A DNA stretch of 63,713 nt, counting the filler, from Licmophora abbreviata (taxonomy: Eukaryota), in assembly GCA_900291995.1 (NCBI GenBank). It is 9 parts of 9 records of this genome, joined end to end, with 100 filler letters (N's around TTAATTAATTAA, not from the genome) between each part and the next. Parts side by side here need not be neighbours in the genome. Positions count along the whole stretch, not along the records: positions 44,517 to 58,767 come from OLMU01000113.1; 8 more parts are not named here. One strand, 5' to 3'. Positions within the stretch are counted from its first letter, which is position 1. Each line of letters opens with the position of its first letter. The translations under genes and the position numbers were made by a program. The notes under the pieces were generated by a model. That model saw only the letters and a list, made by a program, of their open reading frames with translations. It ran no database searches and was not told where the DNA came from. This document shows positions 10,087 through 62,300 of the stretch, piece after piece.

Positions 10087-10186
10087 NNNNNNNNNNNNNN
10101 NNNNNNNNNNNNNNNNNNNNNNNNNNNNNNTTAATTAATTAANNNNNNNNNNNNNNNNNNNNNNNNNNNNNNNNNNNNNNNNNNNN
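10087..10186. other. Scaffold gap with artificial TTAATTAATTAA six-frame-stop spacer (same at 15735-15834, 27755-27854, 37234-37333, 40374-40473, 44417-44516, 58768-58867, 62200-62299)
   Basis: Identical N44-TTAATTAATTAA-N44 blocks, 100 nt each. Confidence 0.98.
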
Positions 10187-15727: not shown

Positions 15728-15850
15728 TCGCTTTNNNNNNNNNNNNNNNNNNNNNNNNNNNNNNNNNNNNNNNNNNNNTTAATTAATTAANNNNNNNNNN
15801 NNNNNNNNNNNNNNNNNNNNNNNNNNNNNNNNNNTAAACTCTCAACGACC

Positions 15851-27633: not shown

Positions 27634-30600
27634 CTATAGGACGGTGCCGGGGCTCGATGATGTCCGGTATTCGAGCCCGGCGACCATTCGTGGCCCACCT
27701 GCTTGCGCCGCCCACAGATCCATGCGAGCGCCGCTCAGTACTTCATCCGCCAGANNNNNNNNNNNNNNNNNNNNNNNNNNNNNNNNNNNNNNNNNNNNTT
27801 AATTAATTAANNNNNNNNNNNNNNNNNNNNNNNNNNNNNNNNNNNNNNNNNNNNCAGAGTGAGCACGATCCTCGCAATCAGATTGGCAATCTGTGCACGA
27901 AGCTTTCCACTTCCCAAAGCTCGTTCGTGCCATCGATCGAGAAATTTAAGATTCTCGCTGACGTCGTCAGCGGTGGCACGAACAGCTGCCTCGAACTGTT
28001 CGGGCCGTGCTCGCCGGTTGTTGAAGCCGTGGCCTGCCATCCCAATATGGCGGATCATGTCGCTCTCTGTTATGGGCTTGAAAGAGAAGGACAACTGGTG
28101 CCCGAGAATCTGTAGCTGGATCCCGTCGCAGAAATCTGACACAACTGCACCGATGAGGGTGATGATGTTTCCCAATAGTGCTCGTTGCCAAGCTAGCGGG
28201 AAGAGCTTCAACAATGGTGCTGATATCTGACAGTGGGAAATCAACGTTTCGACAACTGCGTCTCGCTGGATGAACGACTCGTCAAATTGCCCGCGCCGTG
28301 ACTGTGAACCTCGTCGCCTGCGTTTCTTTGCCGATTTTGTCATGACGTCCAGAATGGCTTCTTGCGCGTAGTTCTTGTCGCCGTCGCTGCCCGGAAGGAC
28401 GCTCTTCCCGACCGGCGGGAGGTCGGGTGAGTCCTCTGTGAACAGTCGAATGTCGGAGTGAGTCATGACGTTGACGCCGTGGATTGCCTTGTATGCAGCA
28501 CTTTCGACGCCCTCGCCAATCTTTTCGCCGAAGCTGCCGCCTTTGCCTATCGACTGGCGCAGTAGCCAGCTACCCCCTCCTCCATTTCCGTTCCCGTTGT
28601 TGACGCCTTCACCCCGTCCTCGACCGACTTCCTTGTATTCGTAGAGCTTCCGGGCGTCTGCCGATGGTGTAAGAAGGTCGTCCCCGATACTTTCTTCTTC
28701 GTCGTCATCGAAGTCTGCCGCATTCTTCCACAGATGTGTATGGTTCAGCTTTGTAAGGCGACCATGAGCAAAAAGCTCGTCAAGGTATTCCTCTACAAGC
28801 TCTGACGGAGGGAAGTTGATTTCTCGCGAATGCAGGACAGAGGTGTCAGTGGTGTCACTACCAACAATCGAAGTTTCGACCGACGTAGTTGTGTAGTTGT
28901 ACAAAGGGTTGGGTCGTCTCTGTAACGCATCTTTCTCACACTGCAGCTCAAGCAGCTCTGCCTGACCCTTCGATATAAGTCGATCGATTTGCTTGACTCG
29001 ATCATTACGCCGTTGGTTTTCTAGAAAGTCTTCGGTAGACTGTTTCTCCGAGACATCGGCACCCGAAAGAGCCGCCTTGGCCAAATCCTTTCTGCGACGA
29101 TTCCGTCTGAAGATCCCACGTCGGTTCATGACGACGACTTCTGCGTCGGCGGCCGCCTTGCGCTCAACGTTCTTCTTCGCTCTCTCGATGACTGTAATCC
29201 GACGTCGTATAAGGTCAAGATCTTCGTCGTTGAGTGCCCCGGTGTCCACGCCTGACATCTCTGGGTGTGCCAACAGGGCAATAGGCCGCCGGCCCTTCCC
29301 ACTTAAAATACCATGTACACCAGTGGCGCGGGAAAAAGCTTTCCGGACAGGTCGGAGGTGTCGCGAGATTCGGAAAGTGGGGTGCGCCGTCGAAAATCCC
29401 AGGGACGCGACTTTATCGATCGTAGCCCACTGGTGGTCACGACACAAGGAGAAAATGAATGAGAAAAATAAGACAAGGAAGTGTCGCAATGTTGTTGAAA
29501 TTGCCACAGACTCACATAGCCCGAGGAGATGTACACGCTCGTACGACGAGGCTGTACTTCAGTGAGAGACTTTGGCAAAGTAGCCGCTGCTGGGAATGCT
29601 TCCCTCTTATCGGTGTCACCACTGACATCCGACACCCGATGTCGTGTCCTGTTGAACCCGGTAGAATCAATTTGGGCCATAGAGTCTGGACCAGACTCGG
29701 GAGAAGCATCTGACGGGTTGAACGCCTCTAGAGTTGAAATATCTTCCTCGACAGAAGTGGTTTCGATCGTTGCGTCCACTTTTGACACGTCTAGTGATGT
29801 TCCGTACTTATCCGATAGGTGAACTTCATTACTCTCGGTAGCCGGCTCGACGAAGCTCTCCCCCGTCGGGTGTTTCCCTTCGGAAGCCCCCAGCTCCTTA
29901 TCGTTCGACGAGGGGACCGGTTCAGTCCACAGGTTTCCCCACCAGAGCCTTGTCATCTTTTTCAGGCGATCGGGAAGAATCGTTTTGGTATTTGCCTTCG
30001 ACAGGACCGGCGGTTGCAATTGGCTGGGTAATGCCGAGTCTAGAGAAGTGTCGCCTTCAGGCATAGCGTCTGGACTGGCGTCAAGAACTCTCTCGATCTC
30101 AAAAATTGATTCGGCTCCAGGCATTGTAAACGCTTGCTCCGACTTGGCAGGAGCTTGGGTGCCCTCCCACGACTGCATTACTGCCGTAGTTCCCGTTGTC
30201 GTTTCTACAGGTGCGGCTGCTCTATCGTTGCTTTCCACATTTATCGCTTCCTCTTGTATCCATGAAGGTTGTTGTTCCGCCTCCGCAACCTCACTAGCGA
30301 TTTCAGAAATTGCCGCTGTTCTTTGCGCCCAAGAGGCCTCTTCGTTCTTAACAACTTCGAGACCAGAGATATGACCGTCCATTGAAGAGTTGACTTCCTC
30401 GTCAGGGTAATACGCATCGTCTGTGCTCTCCCCATCTTCAATGTTTTCGATTGAATCGTCGCCAATCGCCTCGTTATCCTCTTTATCGATTTGTCGAAGA
30501 GACCCCATTGATATCTGAGATTGATGGACACGTCTCAAACTAGGCCTTGACGCTGTTCGAACCGCTAAAGCACCCCCTCTTCCATTTCCCGGTTTCATCG

Positions 30601-36900: not shown

Positions 36901-39900
36901 CTAGCGATCGGCGATTTGCTTTGCGGCATCTAGCGCCATTATCTCAGCCCCCAGCCCCGTAAGGGCGTCTTTCAGCTCGCGAAATGCCGATGCTCGAGCG
37001 TCGGCGACGCCGGCGAGCGTTTCGTCATCAGCGCCCAATGGCACATCCTTTGGCGACAACCTATCCCCTTGTGCGGATAGAACACTTCCCAATGTCCGGG
37101 CGGACGGCACAAGTTCCTTCTTTGCATCATCTCCCAGCAAAAGACTGCTGCAATATTCCAGCGAAAGAATCAAACTGCACGCAGTCCCCAGCTGCTGATC
37201 GAAAAAGTCTCTTCGTTGTTTATCGGCTTTGTCNNNNNNNNNNNNNNNNNNNNNNNNNNNNNNNNNNNNNNNNNNNNTTAATTAATTAANNNNNNNNNNN
37301 NNNNNNNNNNNNNNNNNNNNNNNNNNNNNNNNNGTTCAGTGCAAGAAGCTCCTCATCGACAACTGGTTCGGACGAACAGACGCGGTCCGTGAGAGAAGAT
37401 AAGCTGCGTGGAGAGACAAAAGAAGATCAGAAAGACAGCGAACGGTCGACATCGTTTAGGAGCGACGGGAGTTTGACACTCACATTCCAGCATAGCCGTT
37501 GCTGTACATCACTTGGAGGTAGGTTAGAGCTGATTCCAACGACTGATTCGTCATCTGCAGATTAGCTTGAAGCCATGCATAGTGAGATCGAAGAACCTTC
37601 ATCGCGTTCCCGCGAACTTTATCCAAATCCTGTGTACAAAGAAAACTCTCTATTGCATCCAGAAGTCTGGCCTTTCTTTGCATCGCTCCGGTGATCACCC
37701 CCACCAGCCGTACTATCGTTTCTCTTTCAGCAACCTGCTCCACGACAGCGGGGTCCATTCCGTTGATCATGGCAGGCGGGACGCGTGTCACTCCCGATGA
37801 CTCGGAGTCAATATTTTGTCCAGGGAGCAAGTTTCTGTCTCTCACTGTCAATCTGCTGAGAAGGGACTTGGTCGAGTGTCCCTCTTCCTCCGGACCTGCA
37901 AGTTGGAACGGTCACACTATAGTTTTTGCCAAAGTACAGATTCAAGGAACATATACATGCATCCAGTCGCTTACCATAGACAGGACCATAACTGGTTCCA
38001 TATGGGAGTGATCCTGGTTCCGAATGCAAATCCGAGATGACGCTTATGTGATTTAGAGACGTTTCTGCGGCGTGGAATAGAATATCGGGCACACCGTGAC
38101 TTGCAACGTCAATGTCAGGACAAAAAGCAAATCCAAGTTCCTTGCGCTCAAACATGATCACATAACCGTGTCGTTCCTCGTCGTGAGAGAGTACAGTCCC
38201 GCGATGGATGATTCGATACCTGGAATTGTACGCAGAAACGGTCGATCCGACCTTTATTGCAGCCGGCACTTCATAGCGAAAGTAAGGTGGTCTCCCACGC
38301 CTCACTTTCTGGACCCAACGTGCAGTATGCCGGTAAGCACTTAATTGATCGAGCTGTTTCTGAACAAATCGCCTTGAAAACCTGCGGGGTCGGTTCGGAA
38401 TACATCGTCTTACTAGACTCCACTCTCGTCTCGTCAACTTGGAATGGGGCGGAATCCCAAGTTTCGCAACTTCGGCTTTGAACTCATTAAAGGAAAACCT
38501 AAAAATTGAACATAGCAAGTTAGTGATGTTTGGCAGAGCGAAATTAAAAAAGACCTTATTCGTTTCGCACTCACCATGCGCGATCTAAGTCACTGTAGAA
38601 GAACTCATGATGAGCCCAAGATCTTCCGCTCCCCTTCAGACAGTTGATCACCTTGGTACTCCACGAGGCATAGATGGAATCCGAGTGTCGACGGCGAGGC
38701 GGCTCCTTTGTTGACGGCTTTCTCTGTACGTGGGGAATGGGATTGGCTGCGGACCATGAGGGAAGACCGGCCTCAATCTGCGATAAGGCAAAAGCTGATG
38801 GCACATCAATCTCCGGTAAGTTCTTGGAAGCTGGTGTCCATTGCTGTCGTCTTCTCCATTCCAACAAATTTAACGAGACAGGGGCTGACAAAGAGTGTAC
38901 TGCGCGAGCATCATCAAGATTCTTGTAGATCGACGCAGGATCAATGGGCCCCAGAAGAAATCCGGACATGTCTTCCTCCTCTTCATCCACCTGCTGCTGC
39001 TTCCGCTTTCTCCGTGTCGATGGTTGAGCCGGAGACATCGCTGGTGGAATGAGCCGTTTCTTGCTCTTTCCTGGATGCTACAGCCGAGACGACGTGTCAC
39101 AGAGGTGAGTAGACATACACAACAAGAGCGTGCATCACGTCCGTGCCATACGAACCTTCGGGATTCCTGGTTGTTTTTCCTTTCCTTTCAGTGCTATGGG
39201 AGCCCGCGAGGAAAGCGCTACAACCTTTTTAGAAGAACGTTTCTCTGTATCCTCTGGCGAGTCTGTCTTCTTTCGTTTCGCCTTCCGCTGAGAGTGACGT
39301 GTGTTGACAATCGCAAAACCATATGCCGTGAGATCTCTAGAAGAAGGCGCAACCGGTCCACACAATCTCTTTGCTATTCACAACTTACTCGCCCGAGACG
39401 GGTCGGAAGTGGACCCATCTCTTCTTCCAGCTCTTCGACGGCTGATACAAGCGCATTGAGTCCCATGCTCTCCTTCTCTTCGCGCTCTCTGCTTTTGGCA
39501 ATGCGACTGCTTCGAGCCATCCCACGCGTGAGTCGCCGCGGCTTCCCATTCTCGTCGTCTGAATCTCCCGACTCATGATTGTCACCAGCAATATCAAGTC
39601 TACCAAGATGATAGTGGCCTTGTCGATGGTGATGGTACGGTTCCCAAAAGTCCGTACGTTTGTGCAATCCAATCGCTTTACGGATCCACGTCATGGTTCG
39701 TTTGTCTAATGCCGAAGGACTCTGCCGTTGCGTGTCCGATGCGACCTTCTTGTAAACTTCTTGAGCGATAGATTGCTCTTCAAACACAACATAGACGGTT
39801 TCTAATATTCTTTCTCTTTCGTCCTCTGAGTCTTCAGCGAGGTCTAGACGATACCGGACTTCATCCTGAGCTGCTCGGGCCGTCCGTGCCATGCGATTCC

Positions 39901-40192: not shown

Positions 40193-40682
40193 CGTGGCGC
40201 TGGAGTGTGAAAATGAGCAAGCGGAAAAAAGCCAATCTTGGAGGGAAATCGCGTTCGAAGTGCGATACGTTGAATTTGAAGAAGTTCGACTCTCCTTGCG
40301 ATAGGCACTTTCTCAGATACTCTTCAATAATGTGTTAGCTCTAGCTCTGTTGGGAAGAACAGTAAACAAGTGTNNNNNNNNNNNNNNNNNNNNNNNNNNN
40401 NNNNNNNNNNNNNNNNNTTAATTAATTAANNNNNNNNNNNNNNNNNNNNNNNNNNNNNNNNNNNNNNNNNNNNACCACGAGGTCTGAGTCGATACCACGA
40501 TACCACACCTTTCGAAAAAAACGCGCGAAGCATTCACCTCTGATTTAGTATGGTGAGGCGATGAGGCGTCGCTGCGCTTTTGTGCACATCGTTGAACTCA
40601 TCTGTCGGTGACAGCGTTTGCATTGGCCTGCCTGCTTATTCTCTTCCTTATCTTGGAGATATCTATCGTGTATTTGTAAACC

Positions 40683-42470: not shown

Positions 42471-42689
42471 GGGCACTGTAGCTAAGTTATCCAACTCGTC
42501 TGCGATTTACGGTTACAGAATCTGAACCAAAGGTGTGATACACTGTCTGTTTCGTCTTCGCGATAGTCGAGTCATGAGTCAAGTCCAGTCACGCAACCAC
42601 AACACAAAACGCGTGCACTCTCTCTCGCGAGCATTTTGACGATGTTATCGACACACGGCGACCGAAGTATCGTCAGTACCTGTTATTGG

Positions 42690-44212
42690 ATGAAGCTGTT
42701 CCTCTCGCTGTGTACCCATTTAGTCCCTTTATGCTCTGGGTGGACGAGAAATATCGTATCGACAAGAAGTTTCGTCCGAAGACTCATCCCTAGTACCCGC
42801 ACCTCGTCTTCCCGATTCATGACCAGGCTCAACATGTCTGACACCACGCCGCGATCCAAAAGAGCTAAGCGACGAGCGCCCTCTTCACAAAATCACACGC
42901 CGGGCACTGGGAATGGCGCTTTGAAACTACCAAAGCACTCTCCAAAAACTCCATCGTCTCTCCCTAGGAAACGTGCAGACGCATCGACTTCGTCATCGCC
43001 GGAGAAGAATGCCGTGCTTCGGTCGGAACAAGTGTCGGCATTGAATCCAGATCAAGAGTACCAGGATCTCGGGGTTCTTCCATGTGAACTTCGTCCTTCA
43101 GCTACTTTGACGACAGGGCAATGCTTCCATTGGAGAGTAGTCGAACAGGGGGACACTGTCCCGAGCCCTGGATCGGCTTGGGGGTCACATGATGCAACCG
43201 AGTGGGTAGGAGTGTTGCGTCTAGCCGACGACGATCAGTCTCTTGTCGTTTCTATCCAAGAGACTCCCGAGACGACGATGTATCGCACTCTATGTGCTCC
43301 TCCGGGAGTTGATGTGCGGAAGGTACTTCACGAATATTTTCAACTGGATGTGGAATTACTGCCTTTGTATGAGGGATGGTCTACCAATGATCCTGCTCGC
43401 CTAGCGCGCATTGCGGATCGCATTCGCGGCGTACGAATCGTACAGCAAGATCCATGGGAGTGTCTTGTCAGTTTTATCTGTTCCAGCAACAATAACATCC
43501 CGCGTATTACAAAGATGCTTTCCGCCATTCGACGTCAATACGGGAGACCTCTAATGACGATTGGCGATGAGACTCTTTACTCGTTTCCTGGCATGGAGGC
43601 ATTTCGTCGAGGGGCGACAGAGGCTGATTTACGAGACATTGGTTTGGGATACCGCGCAAAATACTTGATTCATACGGTGAATACCTTGCATTCTTTAGGG
43701 GGCGAGCCATATCTCATGGAGCTCAGAAGCGACACCAACCCTTGCTCCGTGCAAGAGAAGCTAATTCAGTTTGCTGGTGTCGGGCGCAAGGTCGCAGACT
43801 GCGTCGCGCTGTTTTCGCTTTGCCAATACAATGCGATCCCAGTCGATGTGCATGTGTGGAACATTGCTCGCCGCGACTACGATGCTGAAGGGATTCTGAC
43901 GGAAGTGAAGAGCCTAACACCGACGATTTACCGGCAGGTCGGTGACCTCTTTCGTAGTCGCTTTTCAGAGAAAGCTGGGTGGGCCCATTCTCTGCTTTTT
44001 GTCGCTGAGCTGCCAAGCTTTCGTGTAGTGCTGCCTGCCGACATGGTGTTGGAGATGGAGCAGGTGAGACGAACTGCACTTTGATCTCGTGTACTAGGTC
44101 CTCGTGCGTCCGCTTACACTGTCGCCTTGTTGCGTGATTGCTTGTCAAGTTTCGGAAGCAAGAACAGGAGCGAAAAGAAGCCGCGAAGGCCGCAAAGCGA
44201 AGCAAGTCGTGA
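42690..44212 (+). CDS. OGG1: 8-oxoguanine DNA glycosylase; intron 44064-44149
   Basis: TLTTGQCFHW, QDPWECLVSFICSSNNNIPRI, GLGYRAKY, HhH GVGRKVADC, IPVDVHV, AGWAHSLLF. Confidence 0.95.
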
Positions 44213-44516
44213 CTCTTCGCACATTACTTGCTTAGGTTGTGAAGACAGAGGATCACGCCGCTAGGCGAGGACGAGATACTGATGTATTGATCTAAAAGGA
44301 GGAACACAAAAATGCTCGAATGTTCAAGTGTTGCATGCTCTATCAGAGGCCAGACCACCGTCTGTCCAACACACCGCACACGTACGTACTACGCGAGACC
44401 TTTTTCGCGGCACACTNNNNNNNNNNNNNNNNNNNNNNNNNNNNNNNNNNNNNNNNNNNNTTAATTAATTAANNNNNNNNNNNNNNNNNNNNNNNNNNNN
44501 NNNNNNNNNNNNNNNN

Positions 44517-46406
44517 AGTGGTGGCTGGAAACTGGAAACTCAACCCAGCGACCTATTCAGACGCAATCAATCTACTAAAACTACTTTCCTCGAATTTCAA
44601 GAATCATCGATCAGCGTCTGATTGTGTTCACGAAGTCCCAGAGGTTGTTGTCTTTCCACCGCACCCATTTCTGAATGTAGCCATTGCAGAACTAGAAGGA
44701 ACGGGTATTAAAGTAGGCGCACAAAATGTCGGACTAGAGACGAACGGAGCCTACACGGGCGAGGTGGCAGCATCCATGGTGCGGACCTTAGGTTGTGACT
44801 ACGTCATGTTAGGTCATTCCGGACGGCGCTCTCTCTACGATGAAACGGACAGGGAAATAAATGCCAAAGTGCATTTGTGTCTCAAAGAGAGCGGCCTCAA
44901 CGTGATTCTTTGTGTGGGTGAAAGTGACGAGGAATACGAGAACGAGCTCCTTCGCAGTGTGGTTGATGTCCAGTTGAAGAAAGGACTAATGGGAGTCAGT
45001 GCCTCTAACCTCGATCGTATTGTCGTTGCATATGAACCTGTACGTCTTTGCCGGAAAACATATAGATTCGATTCTTGCGGATTCCTCTCACAGTCTCTTC
45101 CGTCGCGTTCCAGGTGTGGGCTATTGGAACCGGTGAGTAGACTCGAAGCGGTGTTTCAAGGGTCCCCCGGCATACCTTTTCTCACAGTTCCGCTCTCTTG
45201 ACATAAGCAGGCAAAGTAGCGACTCCAGAGCAGGCTCAGGTAGCGCATGTGGCGGTAAGACAGACTCTTGCAAACATGTTTGGCTCTGACGCTGCGAGAG
45301 ACATTAGAATCCAGTATGGCGGATCAGTCAACCCGGAGAATGTTGAAGATTTAATGGCGATGCCTGACGTTGACGGTGCATTGGTTGGCGGAGCTTCCCT
45401 CACAGCAGATTCATTCACTCGCATTGTTGACGGTGGCATAAACAATCCAGCGATGCAGTCGTCGAAGGCACATGAGCTTACAGCACGCGAATCCGTCTCT
45501 ACGAAGAACGTGCTAGGAGAGAGTCCGGTCTGGTCAGTACGAGACCAGGCGTTGTATTGGATATCTGCCCCGGAAGAAGAAGTGTGGACATGGAACATGA
45601 AAGACTCTCCCTACCGTCGTCTCGTGGGTACGACACTCGGTTGCGTTGCCGTCAGAGCCGGCAATGAAAAGGGATCTATTGTATTGGGAGGCGAACGTGC
45701 GTTTCTCTCCCTTACCATGTCACCAAGCGCTAGTGACTTTGCGGAAGGTTCGAAGGTTCTATGCGACCGCCCTGAACAGACGGAGGCGACCCGGCCAAAC
45801 GATGGGAGAGTGGACCGGCAAGGGCGTCTCGTCTTTGGAATGTACAACAACTACCATCGCGAAGGCTCGTCTGCGGGTACGAACAATGCAGGGCTTTACA
45901 GACTGAACGAAAAACTCGAAGTCGAGTCCCTGCTCGATTACAGGTACCGTGTGTCCAACTGTATCTGTTTCCCCGAGGACGGCAAAATTATGTATTTTTG
46001 CGACACTCCAACCCGGGCGCTCTATGCATTTGACTACCCTGAAGACGAGAGCGGGAAGCTATCAAATCGACGGCTGGTGTGGACGATGCCTCCAAATTTG
46101 CCCGGCGGACCCGACGGCGCGCAATGCGATTCAGAAGGTTTCGTGTGGGTAGCGCTTAGCGGAGCTAGCCGAGTCGTCCGAATTGACCCGACAAAAGGCG
46201 TGGTAGACATGGTCGTAAATCTTCCGGTGAAATGCCCGACATCGGTGACGTTTGGAGGCCCTGATCTGGACGAGCTGTTTATCACAACGCGCGGGCCCGA
46301 CGGAGGGGGTCTGTACCGTTTGAAGATGCCGTTCGGAATAAAAGGACTCCCTGAACCAGAGTTTCAGATATCTGGTGATGTTGACTCTGAGAAATTCGTA
46401 AGCTAA
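44517..46406 (+). CDS. Triosephosphate isomerase - SMP-30/gluconolactonase fusion (5' end in gap); introns 45040-45113, 45133-45210
   Basis: TPI: VAGNWK, GAYTGE, GHS(G)[39 protein letters not shown]. Continues in frame into [51 protein letters not shown]. Confidence 0.92.
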
Positions 46407-46416
46407 CAATCTGTTC

Positions 46417-47508
46417 CTATGATATTTGATTTACAAATTCCTCAATCTTGTTGAGCGGTGATGGGATGCTCGCCCCATACGTTATCACACCCCTCGCTCC
46501 CGTGGCACAGCCCCAGACTAGTCCCTGTTCGATTGCCTTTCTCGGCCAGAGATCAGTAGACGGGTCAAACTCAGCTGCATACTGCCATCTCCATATCCCA
46601 TACACAAAGCCAGCACAGAAGCTGTCACCAGCTCCTGTTGGATCGACGGCCTGCACGGTCGCCGCAAGTTGCGACGCCATGATTTTCCCGCCTCGGAGCG
46701 CCACCGCTCCGCGATCGCCTCGCGTCACGACCACACATGTAGAGGGACTTGCCAAGGCAATTACTGCCGCCCATCGCTCAAGCTCATTTGCGCCTTCCAT
46801 ATGATGGTCAGCAACGCCGTTATCGCGTCCAACGGTCATGCCCTCGGCCTCCAGCTCATTCAGTACCAGGAAGTCCACGAGGGGCAGCAGGTCCAACAGC
46901 CCACCGTCCCAATCTCCGCTAGCGTCATGTTGCGGAACTAACGATATAGTCAATGAGGAAGATCTTGTTCGATATGCTTCAAGCTCTCGTTTGAGTTTCC
47001 CATCCCAGAAACCACGAATATTGAAAAAGCCGGCAATATGAATGTGTGAATGGCGTACGTTGCAGTCGCCACCGATTAGCCTATGGCCTTGCACATCAGA
47101 AGCTTCAAACTCGTCCATGCAGCCCGTATGCGTAAGAAACGACCTTTCTCCTTGAGCAACCATGACGATACAGTGTCCCGTCGAGCTCGCGGAATTCTCC
47201 TGATGGCAGTTAATCAGCTGGAACCTATGCTCCTCCGCGTGCCGGAGGAGGAGTCTTCCATAATCATCGTTCGGATTCAAAGTCGTGAAGAGCTTCAAAG
47301 CAATAGACAACCATTCCTCTCCCTTATGACTGAACAAGCTTTGAACATGCGTCGCGGTGTTGACGGCAGATCCACCCGCCATTTGATTCACAGGCTTGTA
47401 CAGGCGAGCATCGCCTCCAGCTTCCGGAAAGTCGTTTTCGAGGTAGCACAACAAGTCTACGAAAGCATCACCGATTACGTCAATCGACAAGTAGCGGTTT
47501 TCCGACAT
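46417..47508 (-). CDS. PfkB/ribokinase family carbohydrate kinase
   Basis: VIGDAFVD, GGSAVNTA, GERSF, LNELEA, VVTRG.RG, DPTGAGDSFCAGF. Confidence 0.92.
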   Translation of the reverse strand: MSENRYLSIDVIGDAFVDLLCYLENDFPEAGGDARLYKPVNQMAGGSAVNTATHVQSLFSHKGEEWLSIALKLFTTLNPNDDYGRLLLRHAEEHRFQLINCHQENSASSTGHCIVMVAQGERSFLTHTGCMDEFEASDVQGHRLIGGDCNVRHSHIHIAGFFNIRGFWDGKLKRELEAYRTRSSSLTISLVPQHDASGDWDGGLLDLLPLVDFLVLNELEAEGMTVGRDNGVADHHMEGANELERWAAVIALASPSTCVVVTRGDRGAVALRGGKIMASQLAATVQAVDPTGAGDSFCAGFVYGIWRWQYAAEFDPSTDLWPRKAIEQGLVWGCATGARGVITYGASIPSPLNKIEEFVNQIS

Positions 47509-47856
47509 GGTAGGGACGTGGGTATTGACAGGACCACAGCATTGGCTTGTTATTAAACGCTTAACGATCGGTAGCGAAGAGTATCATACCGGGAAGCATC
47601 ACAATCTCCTAACTATCTCGCGTCGTCTCGTCGTGACATCATCGCCGCGCATTGAGATGGGACACTTTTTGGTGAAAATAACACATTTTTATTTATATTT
47701 GTAAGTTTTAATTAATTTGGCATACATCGAATTGATTTCCTTTCATTTTAGTACTTTCCATGTGCACTTTGTATAGCTTCCACACTTTGAACTTATTGGC
47801 TCATGAGGATGTCGTGGGTATATTCACAAAAGCATGTTTTACAAACTCAAATCCTC

Positions 47857-57376: not shown

Positions 57377-59073
57377 TCAATAATTGCCGGTCGCCTTTTC
57401 CAGGAAAGTATTGTAGATGGCATTTCCAGTTGAAATGAACATAAGAGGAGTAAACAATAGCAACAGGAACCATGCAGCGAAAACTTTGAGCTTTCGGTTC
57501 CACTTGTCGTCCTCTACGTCAGCATCTGTCTCTCCCCCCTCTTCGCTCCTGGCGTCGGCCTGTCGTTGCAGAATGATGAACGACCCACAAGGAATCAGAT
57601 ACGACAACAGAATGGACAGGCTGCTCCCAAGCAGATCCCAGACAATGTCGATGCTTGTCACGCTACATGCGACGGCTGCACCGGACCAAAAGATGAGAAC
57701 TGCAACCACGAGTCGACGCAAAAAGGAGTTTGTAGGTTCGGCGGGCGACTCGGGAGTTGTCAACGCGGCGTTTTGATTCTCATTCTCTCGGCCATCGTTC
57801 ACCAGCAGGGGTTCGCCGAGGTCCCCGTCCTCACTCAAGACATTGCCATGCGGTATTATCTCGGCAGCATGTCGCTGCATTGCACGTAGTACCACATCGC
57901 GTGCCGGGATCACCAACATTGGAAAGGCCAATGTAATGGTCAACGCAAGGCACAAACGCCCCATGAGCAGCAAGGGATCATTCTCGCCAAAGTCCAACAA
58001 CACGTTTCCCTGCACCGACCCAGAAGGAGTGCAGTTTCCATACATTGATCCTGAGAATCCAATGACAAGATAGAACGAAGCAGCTGACCATGTGGTCGAT
58101 CGTATCCACCACGATACGCGCTCGGGTGTAGGCGACTGCAGCTCGTTGTGCACCGTCAATATCTGATAGTGACAGACAAACGTGGAAACAAAAAGAGGCA
58201 GAGCATCCAGGAGGTCCTTCAGCGAGTGTGGGAAGTATGTCAAGTAATCAAACCAAACCGCATGTCGATCCGACTCGTGGTCCCCTCCGAAGTTGCATTG
58301 TACAGATCGAAACAAAACACAAGCTCCTAGAATCAAGACAGACATCATGGATGCCGCCCCGAATTTCTCAAGAGCTGTCAGTGTCTGAAGCGTGCACAGT
58401 GGTGTGACAATAAGAACCACGCTTAGCATGGCCACGTTGTGTGCCAGCGTCAAGCTTCCTGTCCCTGGGGCGGGAGGTACAACAAGGTCGGCAATCGGTT
58501 CGAGCATGTCTCGCAGTAGCACGGCGTATCCGACAGTGCCAAAGAAGCACATGGCCCAAACAAGACACATGGAAAACATCAGCGCGCTGGGACCAAATGC
58601 CGCACTCGCGACCGCTTCGAACGACCCGTTCCCCTTCTTGAACCAATCCGGCCGTCCTCGCGTCATGAGTTTGTCGGACGCAAGCAACAGACGAAAGCAA
58701 AATTCTGCCGAGGCTGCGACCAAGATGATGAAAAACTGGACCAAGGAATGCGTTCCCTGACTTATGCNNNNNNNNNNNNNNNNNNNNNNNNNNNNNNNNN
58801 NNNNNNNNNNNTTAATTAATTAANNNNNNNNNNNNNNNNNNNNNNNNNNNNNNNNNNNNNNNNNNNNAGGAATGCGTTCCCTGACTTATGCAATGCAAAT
58901 GGAAGTGACAACGAGCCTCCTCCGACCATGGTAGACAAGACATTGAGTCGAGCGGAACTGATGGTGCCTCGTCGCTCCTGCGGCGATGAAGTGTCTAGTT
59001 CCGTAGTGCTGTCGTGCCCATTGCTGATTTCTCTATTCTCCACCGAGTCGCCGTTAGGTTCGTGCTCTCCCAT
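57377..59073 (-). CDS. Amino acid transporter (Aa_trans / SLC38-like); spans gap 58768-58867; apparent frameshift at 58731-58735
   Basis: RLNVLSTMVGGGSLSLPFA, FVCHYQIL, multiple TM helices, LLGS..SILLSYLIP. Confidence 0.88.
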
Positions 59074-62199: not shown

Positions 62200-62300
62200 N
62201 NNNNNNNNNNNNNNNNNNNNNNNNNNNNNNNNNNNNNNNNNNNTTAATTAATTAANNNNNNNNNNNNNNNNNNNNNNNNNNNNNNNNNNNNNNNNNNNNA

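Follow-up and report, generated by a model that had tools for sequence, protein, structure and literature searches.

A triosephosphate isomerase joined to an SMP30/regucalcin-type propeller in a predicted nuclear gene of the diatom Licmophora abbreviata, and its conservation among chlorophyll-c algae

Two kinds of natural fusion between triosephosphate isomerase (TPI) and a second enzyme are on record. In the mitochondrial TPI-GAPDH (TPI-GapC3; GAPDH, glyceraldehyde-3-phosphate dehydrogenase) of diatoms, oomycetes and Blastocystis, as described in the available portions of the literature (Liaud 2000, via Kroth 2008; Rio Bartulos 2018), a short spacer links an N-terminal TPI with another enzyme of carbohydrate metabolism, and the protein has one organelle presequence and stramenopile hosts. 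In the bacterial PGK/TPI protein (NCBIfam PRK13962), TPI forms the C-terminal half and the partner is phosphoglycerate kinase (PGK). We examined a locus of the diatom Licmophora abbreviata (GenBank assembly GCA_900291995.1), which we read as a genuine nuclear gene predicted to encode one polypeptide made of TPI and an SMP30/regucalcin-type propeller (Pfam SGL, PF08450). The gene occupies positions 44,517 to 46,406, drawn from record OLMU01000113.1, of the window, i.e., of the whole 63,713 nucleotide (nt) stretch of DNA analysed, filler included; it would represent a third kind of natural TPI fusion. Its layout recalls that of TPI-GapC3, but the partner here is the SGL propeller, the two activities are not consecutive in a known pathway, and the presequence is mitochondrial in TPI-GapC3 whereas the relatives of the window protein carry a signal peptide and an aromatic residue. 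Pfam returned the TIM and SGL domains only, and no GAPDH domain was seen C-terminal to TPI. Nor is the window protein a member of PRK13962; exon 1 matches the TPI part of that family (E 5.2e-42), but the match lies far below the 883-bit cut-off.

Each half also has described or annotated kin that stand alone. SMP30/regucalcin (human 3g4e, mouse 4gn7) has the same six-bladed fold, and its five metal and catalytic residues align with conserved residues of the propeller half; identity is about 30%, the fusion clade differs in its lid motif and in one shortened loop, and the window protein is fused to TPI with a plastid location suggested by its relatives. The nearest non-fused kin of the propeller are stand-alone SGL lactonases (36–42% identity), which are without TPI, keep a longer C-terminal loop (TT.R..M..E...P.AG) and bear automatic names only. 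The closest of these are eukaryotic (Vitrella, Alphamonas, Mesostigma, Pyramimonas), followed by many bacterial proteins of about 290 amino acids (aa), which the Joint Genome Institute pipeline names L-arabinonolactonase or YvrE. No NCBIfam family matched the propeller half, and a protein atlas returned only regucalcin-like clusters, with a score of 0.88, below the 0.9 level.

A full-text literature search, beyond whose reach lay subscription journals, PDFs and bioRxiv supplements, found no paper describing a TPI-SGL fusion. The accessible part of Kroth 2008 describes three fused enzyme pairs in P. tricornutum, with TPI-SGL not among them; the fusion goes unmentioned in the accessible parts of Rio Bartulos 2018, Schober 2019 and Hippmann 2022, and the supplement of the last, as far as it was available, reports three plastid TPIs of T. 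oceanica with no domain information. Both domains belong to well-known families; their combination is uncharacterised as far as the search reached, and new chemistry is so far without support.

The coding sequence was reconstructed from three exons (Table 1). After removal of the two introns the frame comprises 1737 nt (578 codons plus stop) with no internal stops. Exon 1 matches positions 2–164 of the 245 in Pfam TIM (PF00121; E 1.2e-43). A single open reading frame (ORF) in exon 3 matches TIM positions 172–243 (E 2.9e-22) and then SGL positions 1–244 of 246 (E 4.7e-60); because the TIM C-terminus and the full SGL domain lie on this one ORF, the TPI/SGL junction falls inside uninterrupted coding sequence. 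TIM positions 165–171, between the two exon matches, come from the micro-exon, without which the frame is lost and which also rebuilds the invariant YEPVWAIGTG loop; read-through of intron 1 would meet a stop at 45201 (frame listing of 43900–47000). The 5′ end of the gene, with the start codon, the presequence and the first TPI residues, is hidden by the artificial joiner at 44417–44516; in relatives 30–125 residues precede GNWK. An initial annotation of this stretch had proposed two canonical introns around a 19-nt second exon (VWAIGT), a stop-free passage from TPI via a linker into a complete SMP-30 domain, a junction within one exon that could not be a gene-model artefact, retention of the SMP-30 Glu (GES), Asn (RPND), Asn (SNC) and Asp (PDG), and a protein distinct from TPI-GapC3 and not recognised as a characterised enzyme; all of this was borne out, as were the coordinates and the splice structure.

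We next consider how widely the fusion is found. The exon-3 ORF served as the database query and the best 120 proteins were considered; PF00121 and PF08450 occur together in 115 of them, and the remaining five are SGL-only fragments of 225–348 aa. Named carriers were the diatoms Chaetoceros tenuissimus, Nitzschia inconspicua, Cylindrotheca fusiformis and Pseudo-nitzschia multiseries and a Bacillariaceae metagenome-assembled genome and, outside the diatoms, the haptophyte Prymnesium parvum and the pelagophyte Pelagomonas calceolata; Fistulifera solaris has two copies. With the propeller alone, 8102 matches at E ≤0.001 were obtained among 50%-identity representatives, and 8 of the 31 top matches that were Pfam-scanned proved to be TPI+SGL fusions, the lowest propeller identity being 39%. 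Both domains were present in every one of the 65 full-length relatives that were aligned, in which GGASL and GESP stand 33–74 residues apart (median 38; both motifs were found in 64). Among 27 related metagenome loci, 25 hold both halves, and 21 of these keep a single stop-free frame from the beginning of TPI to the end of the propeller; in 20 of the 25 the TPI and SGL matches lie 21 nt apart. An intron at the site of the window's micro-exon is missing from most relatives; one locus (L013, 1785–2010) has introns and carries YEPVWAIGTG on a micro-exon of about 29 nt, whose 3′ splice position is that at which intron 2 starts in the window. The architecture is thus conserved and widespread among chlorophyll-c algae (diatoms, a pelagophyte, a haptophyte and many environmental clusters), and it is already present in public databases under automatic names ("triose-phosphate isomerase", "sugar lactone lactonase"). 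This distribution and database presence, together with the plastid-type presequences of relatives and the loss of a TPI glutamate in this organism described below, go beyond the initial annotation. As a separate observation, three divergent fusions (P0124, P0168 and P0127) have propeller identities of 39–49%, and in two of them the N-terminus is rich in Arg and Ala and lacks a signal peptide; this points to carriers that are neither diatoms nor pelagophytes nor haptophytes.

The residues of both active sites were compared across the 65 aligned relatives. The window propeller matches mouse SMP30/regucalcin 4gn7 with E 8.9e-28, and its Glu, Arg, Asn, Asn and Asp, aligned to E18, R101, N103, N154 and D204 of SMP30, which we take to be the metal ligands and catalytic residues, are invariant in all 65; Arg101 and Asn103 are presumably on the substrate side. 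The acidic lid residues of SMP30 around E120/E121 align to an invariant YNNYHR in the fusion clade, which is further marked by FCDTPTRK and by a shortened TTRGPDGGG loop after the last Thr-Thr. The switch of the lid to basic motifs is a weak hint that the substrate may be a sugar lactone of anionic character (acid, phospho- or sulfo-). In the TPI half the window keeps the Asn and Lys of GNWK, the His of GHS, the Glu of YEPVWAIGTG, YGGS and GGASL, each invariant or at least 90% conserved; all 65 relatives share the His and Glu of GHSERR, the YEP catalytic Glu, YGGS and GGA without exception.

Targeting was assessed with a crude script version of the ASAFind rule (not ASAFind itself) applied to these relatives. 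According to the available description of ASAFind 2.0, diatom plastid proteins have a signal peptide followed by Phe, Tyr, Trp or Leu at the transit peptide's +1 position, and proteins without that residue are periplastid. Forty-seven of the 65 begin with Met and a hydrophobic stretch, and in 44 of those a small and an aromatic residue follow (mostly A/S-F, e.g., AFAP). A location in the plastid stroma thus appears quite likely for the family. In most diatom relatives a short conserved motif, W-Y-[DE]-D-S-[FL]-T, separates the TPI barrel from the transit peptide.

Diatoms also have a separate and well-supported clade of stand-alone plastid-type TPIs of about 288 aa (P0378 of Thalassiosira profunda, as well as P0382 and some 27 others) with classic AFAP-type plastid presequences. 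These are without a propeller and about 41% identical to the window TPI. A quick maximum-likelihood tree of 90 TPI domains placed them and the fusion TPIs together in one wider clade (Shimodaira-Hasegawa-like approximate likelihood ratio test, SH-aLRT, 98), apart from 33 bacterial-like sequences; its inner branching is poorly supported. Since the fusion TPIs stand beside this separate clade, diatoms seem to possess two or more TPIs of plastid type, of which one is fused.

Structure was predicted with AlphaFold for a relative (P0006) about 76% identical to the window protein, using the alignment of the 65 relatives. The mean predicted local distance difference test score (pLDDT) was 84.3 and the predicted template modeling score (pTM) 0.80, with presequence residues 17–77 disordered and a pLDDT of 61 for the block 341–350. 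In Foldseek searches the first half of the model was closest to bacterial TPIs (best, Gemmata 4y96, template modeling score (TM) 0.96, 49% identity), and the second half, a six-bladed propeller, matched human SMP30 3g4e (TM 0.85, 30% identity); no solved chain spanned both halves (query-normalised TM ≤0.40). That pTM reached 0.80 despite about 80 disordered presequence residues weakly suggests a defined mutual orientation of the two domains, with no predicted aligned error (PAE) map behind it.

The window gene probably encodes a plastid protein with two active halves, one a second plastid TPI and the other a metal-dependent sugar-lactone hydrolase, possibly for an anionic substrate, the benefit of fusion being co-import and equal dosage. 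The presequence, judged by that of the relatives, would direct the polypeptide into the plastid stroma; the TPI half would act there as a second isomerase next to the clade of plastid TPIs that stand alone; the propeller half would serve as a divalent-metal-dependent aldono-lactone hydrolase or lactone-forming enzyme; and the fusion would provide co-import on one presequence and 1:1 expression. The architecture and its conservation, the conserved residues and the presequence pattern of the relatives were observed; the activity of both halves, the substrate class, the reason for the fusion and the plastid site of this particular protein are what we infer from the sequences. The initial annotation had offered a bifunctional or channelling enzyme for sugar-lactone/sugar-acid metabolism, or a metal-binding regulatory module on TPI. 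Of this, the conserved in-frame fusion and the retention of the lactonase metal and catalytic residues were supported; of channelling or a shared pathway there was no indication, and the adjacent PfkB kinase is conserved at 0 of 27 related loci. A role as 6-phosphogluconolactonase in a plastid oxidative pentose-phosphate pathway is unlikely because no complete oxidative pathway is reported for diatom plastids in the accessible part of Kroth 2008.

A conserved plastid TPI isoform joined to an intact sugar lactonase implies an unrecognised stromal activity, and candidates for it are the supply of ascorbate, the turnover of sugar acids or lactones, and metabolite repair. Much of the carbon fixed in the sea is fixed by diatoms, pelagophytes and haptophytes, and TPI takes part in the Calvin cycle. 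The automatic names, each describing one half, cause half of the protein to be missed in metabolic models; transformable diatoms allow direct tests of the fusion.

A number of observations pull against a stromal protein with two active halves. The window reads GHSGRR where relatives read GHSERR, and so lacks a conserved Glu that all 65 aligned relatives possess, as do the 21 loci (of 21) in which the motif was found and S. aureus TPI 3m9y. The catalytic Lys is supported by this Glu, without which TPI is considerably less active. Either the TPI half may be weaker in this organism, or the Gly base may represent an assembly error. Targeting of the window protein would have to follow that of its relatives, its own N-terminus being lost in the joiner; among those relatives 18 of 65 failed the first step of the presequence test (several are truncated models), and no signal peptide precedes the divergent fusions P0124 and P0168, whose N-termini are rich in Arg and Ala. 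Not all loci preserve the fused frame. Two (L003 and L023) change frame, and the linker of a third (L019, 1116–1118) contains an in-frame TGA, against GGA in L018, a sibling of 99.4% identity; the TGA could be a sequence error, or an allele ending after TPI. A 300-aa Pinguiococcus TPI, one of the closest stand-alone relatives of the TPI half (56% identity) and with a signal peptide, ends just past the barrel; it appears to stand alone, so the fusion is not obligatory. Thirty-five flanking ORFs at 11 loci belonged, by Pfam and with one GMC oxidoreductase as the exception, to unrelated eukaryotic families and formed no conserved cluster. We know of no pathway in which TPI and a lactonase are neighbouring steps.

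Several of these observations suit the strongest rival, in which the fusion serves only to import the lactonase on the TPI presequence and to co-express it, after which the linker is cut to release two independent enzymes. The linker is short, variable in length and poorly conserved, and it coincides with a stretch of lower model confidence (the block 341–350); neither a shared pathway nor a conserved neighbour was found; and the Pinguiococcus orthologue of the TPI stands alone. The available part of Kroth 2008 reports evidence of post-translational cleavage for some diatom enzyme fusions, which likewise counts against two halves working as one protein. However, the fusion has been kept in diatoms as well as in a pelagophyte and a haptophyte and where SGL identity falls to 39%, P-[RK]-E-L-T-A-R-E, which is conserved after the linker, is no obvious cleavage signal, and the pTM of the whole chain hints, weakly and with no PAE map behind it, at a defined domain orientation. 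We regard import followed by cleavage as unlikely, albeit with a real minority chance of being correct.

A second rival concerns the substrate and overlaps with the bifunctional protein that we favor, the rival readings not all being mutually exclusive. Here the propeller would supply the aldonolactonase step (L-galactonate to L-galactono-1,4-lactone) in vitamin C synthesis of the Euglena type, which we judge distinctly improbable. The fusion is found in exactly the groups predicted for that pathway, stramenopile algae and haptophytes; the accessible portion of PMC8234872 reports diatom homologues of the Euglena aldonolactonase and probable use of that ascorbate pathway by heterokonts and haptophytes. 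The domain is SMP30-like with an intact active site, and in animals the lactonase step of ascorbate synthesis is carried out by SMP30 (Wheeler 2015, available part), but the lactonase step lies outside the survey in that part of the paper. No Euglena protein was among the best 120 relatives of the stand-alone sister group, and ascorbate synthesis gives TPI no role. To our knowledge the Euglena aldonolactonase is not described as plastidial, and the last step of the ascorbate pathway is mitochondrial, both of which count against this assignment.

A bolder version of the bifunctional protein would have the propeller cleave an anionic (phosphorylated or sulfonated) sugar lactone in the plastid, as the entry to an undescribed oxidative breakdown route for sugars or sulfosugars in chlorophyll-c algae, carbon leaving as triose phosphate via the attached TPI. 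We hold this for a long shot; if it were true, the fusion would mark both ends of one new stromal pathway.

Still less probable is a non-catalytic propeller that binds metal (Ca2+) or serves for docking and by which the TPI half is regulated or anchored; a metal-binding regulatory module had been allowed by the initial annotation. The metal residues are indeed kept, and a pure metal sensor would keep the invariant Glu, Asn and Asp too; regucalcin was first described as a calcium-binding protein; and in the window it is the TPI half that carries an unusual substitution, not the propeller. The equivalents of Arg101 and Asn103, however, and many pocket-loop motifs are also invariant or nearly so over the 65 sequences, which is typical of an enzyme, and the nearest relatives are, by automatic annotation, stand-alone sugar lactonases. 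Finally, a gene-model or assembly artefact of the window is effectively refuted, for although the scaffold has eight artificial joiners, one adjoining exon 1, the junction lies in the continuous sequence of one ORF about 900 nt from that joiner, and the same architecture recurs in 115 of the 120 best matches and at 21 of 25 independent loci.

Table 1. Positions of the features of the fusion gene and of its surroundings, counted along the window
Feature	Position	Strand	Remarks
Scaffold joiner	44417-44516	.	44 N, TTAATTAATTAA, 44 N; adjoins exon 1
Exon 1	44518-45039	+	TPI barrel, Pfam TIM 2-164; ends in AYEP
Asn/Lys of GNWK	44530-44538	+	exon 1
His of GHS	44815-44817	+	exon 1
Gly in place of conserved Glu	44821-44823	+	codon GGA
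Catalytic Glu of AYEP	45034-45036	+	exon 1
Intron 1	45040-45113	+	74 nt, GT..AG
Micro-exon	45114-45132	+	19 nt; VWAIGT and first base of Gly codon; TPI loop 6
Intron 2	45133-45210	+	78 nt, GT..AG
Exon 3	45211-46406	+	TPI C-terminus, linker, SGL domain, stop
Exon 3, first part	45211-45428	+	TPI C-terminal third; YGGS and GGASL phosphate-binding loops
Linker, 16 residues	45429-45476	+	sequence variable among relatives
SMP-30/gluconolactonase/LRE-like six-bladed propeller and short C-terminal tail	45477-46403	+	Pfam span 45513-46289
Glu of GES	45519-45521	+	aligns to SMP30 E18
Arg	45792-45794	+	aligns to SMP30 R101
Asn of RPND	45798-45800	+	aligns to SMP30 N103
Asn of VSN	45957-45959	+	aligns to SMP30 N154
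Asp of PDG	46113-46115	+	aligns to SMP30 D204
Stop codon TAA	46404-46406	+	
PfkB-family carbohydrate kinase	46420-47583	-	Pfam E 3.2e-23; convergent with fusion gene
OGG1-like 8-oxoguanine DNA glycosylase	42567-44084	+	OGG_N and HhH-GPD; probably continues past GT donor near 44064

Eight identical joiners (44 N, the same short insert, 44 N) were found in the window, at 10087–10186, 15735–15834, 27755–27854, 37234–37333, 40374–40473, 44417–44516, 58768–58867 and 62200–62299; the window consists of contigs strung together, and the order of genes on the two sides of a joiner may not be genuine. The OGG1-like gene upstream is separated from the fusion gene by one of them, and its true adjacency is uncertain. 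On the other side, the stop codons of the fusion gene and the PfkB kinase are about 10 nt apart, so that their 3′ untranslated regions must overlap. The kinase gave only weak NCBIfam matches (ribokinase, ribose-1-phosphate kinase, fructokinase). None of the 27 related loci gave a match to either the kinase or the OGG1-like gene, and with no conserved neighbour cluster the kinase offers no functional clue. A cluster of lactonase, 2-keto-3-deoxygluconate (KDG) kinase and TPI, as in a semi-phosphorylative Entner-Doudoroff pathway, was considered and dropped, the flanking genes not being conserved across the related loci. A single locus has, some 2 kb downstream of its fusion gene, a gene for a GMC oxidoreductase (L027, 2282–3850, minus strand); the GMC oxidoreductase family includes lactone-making sugar oxidases.

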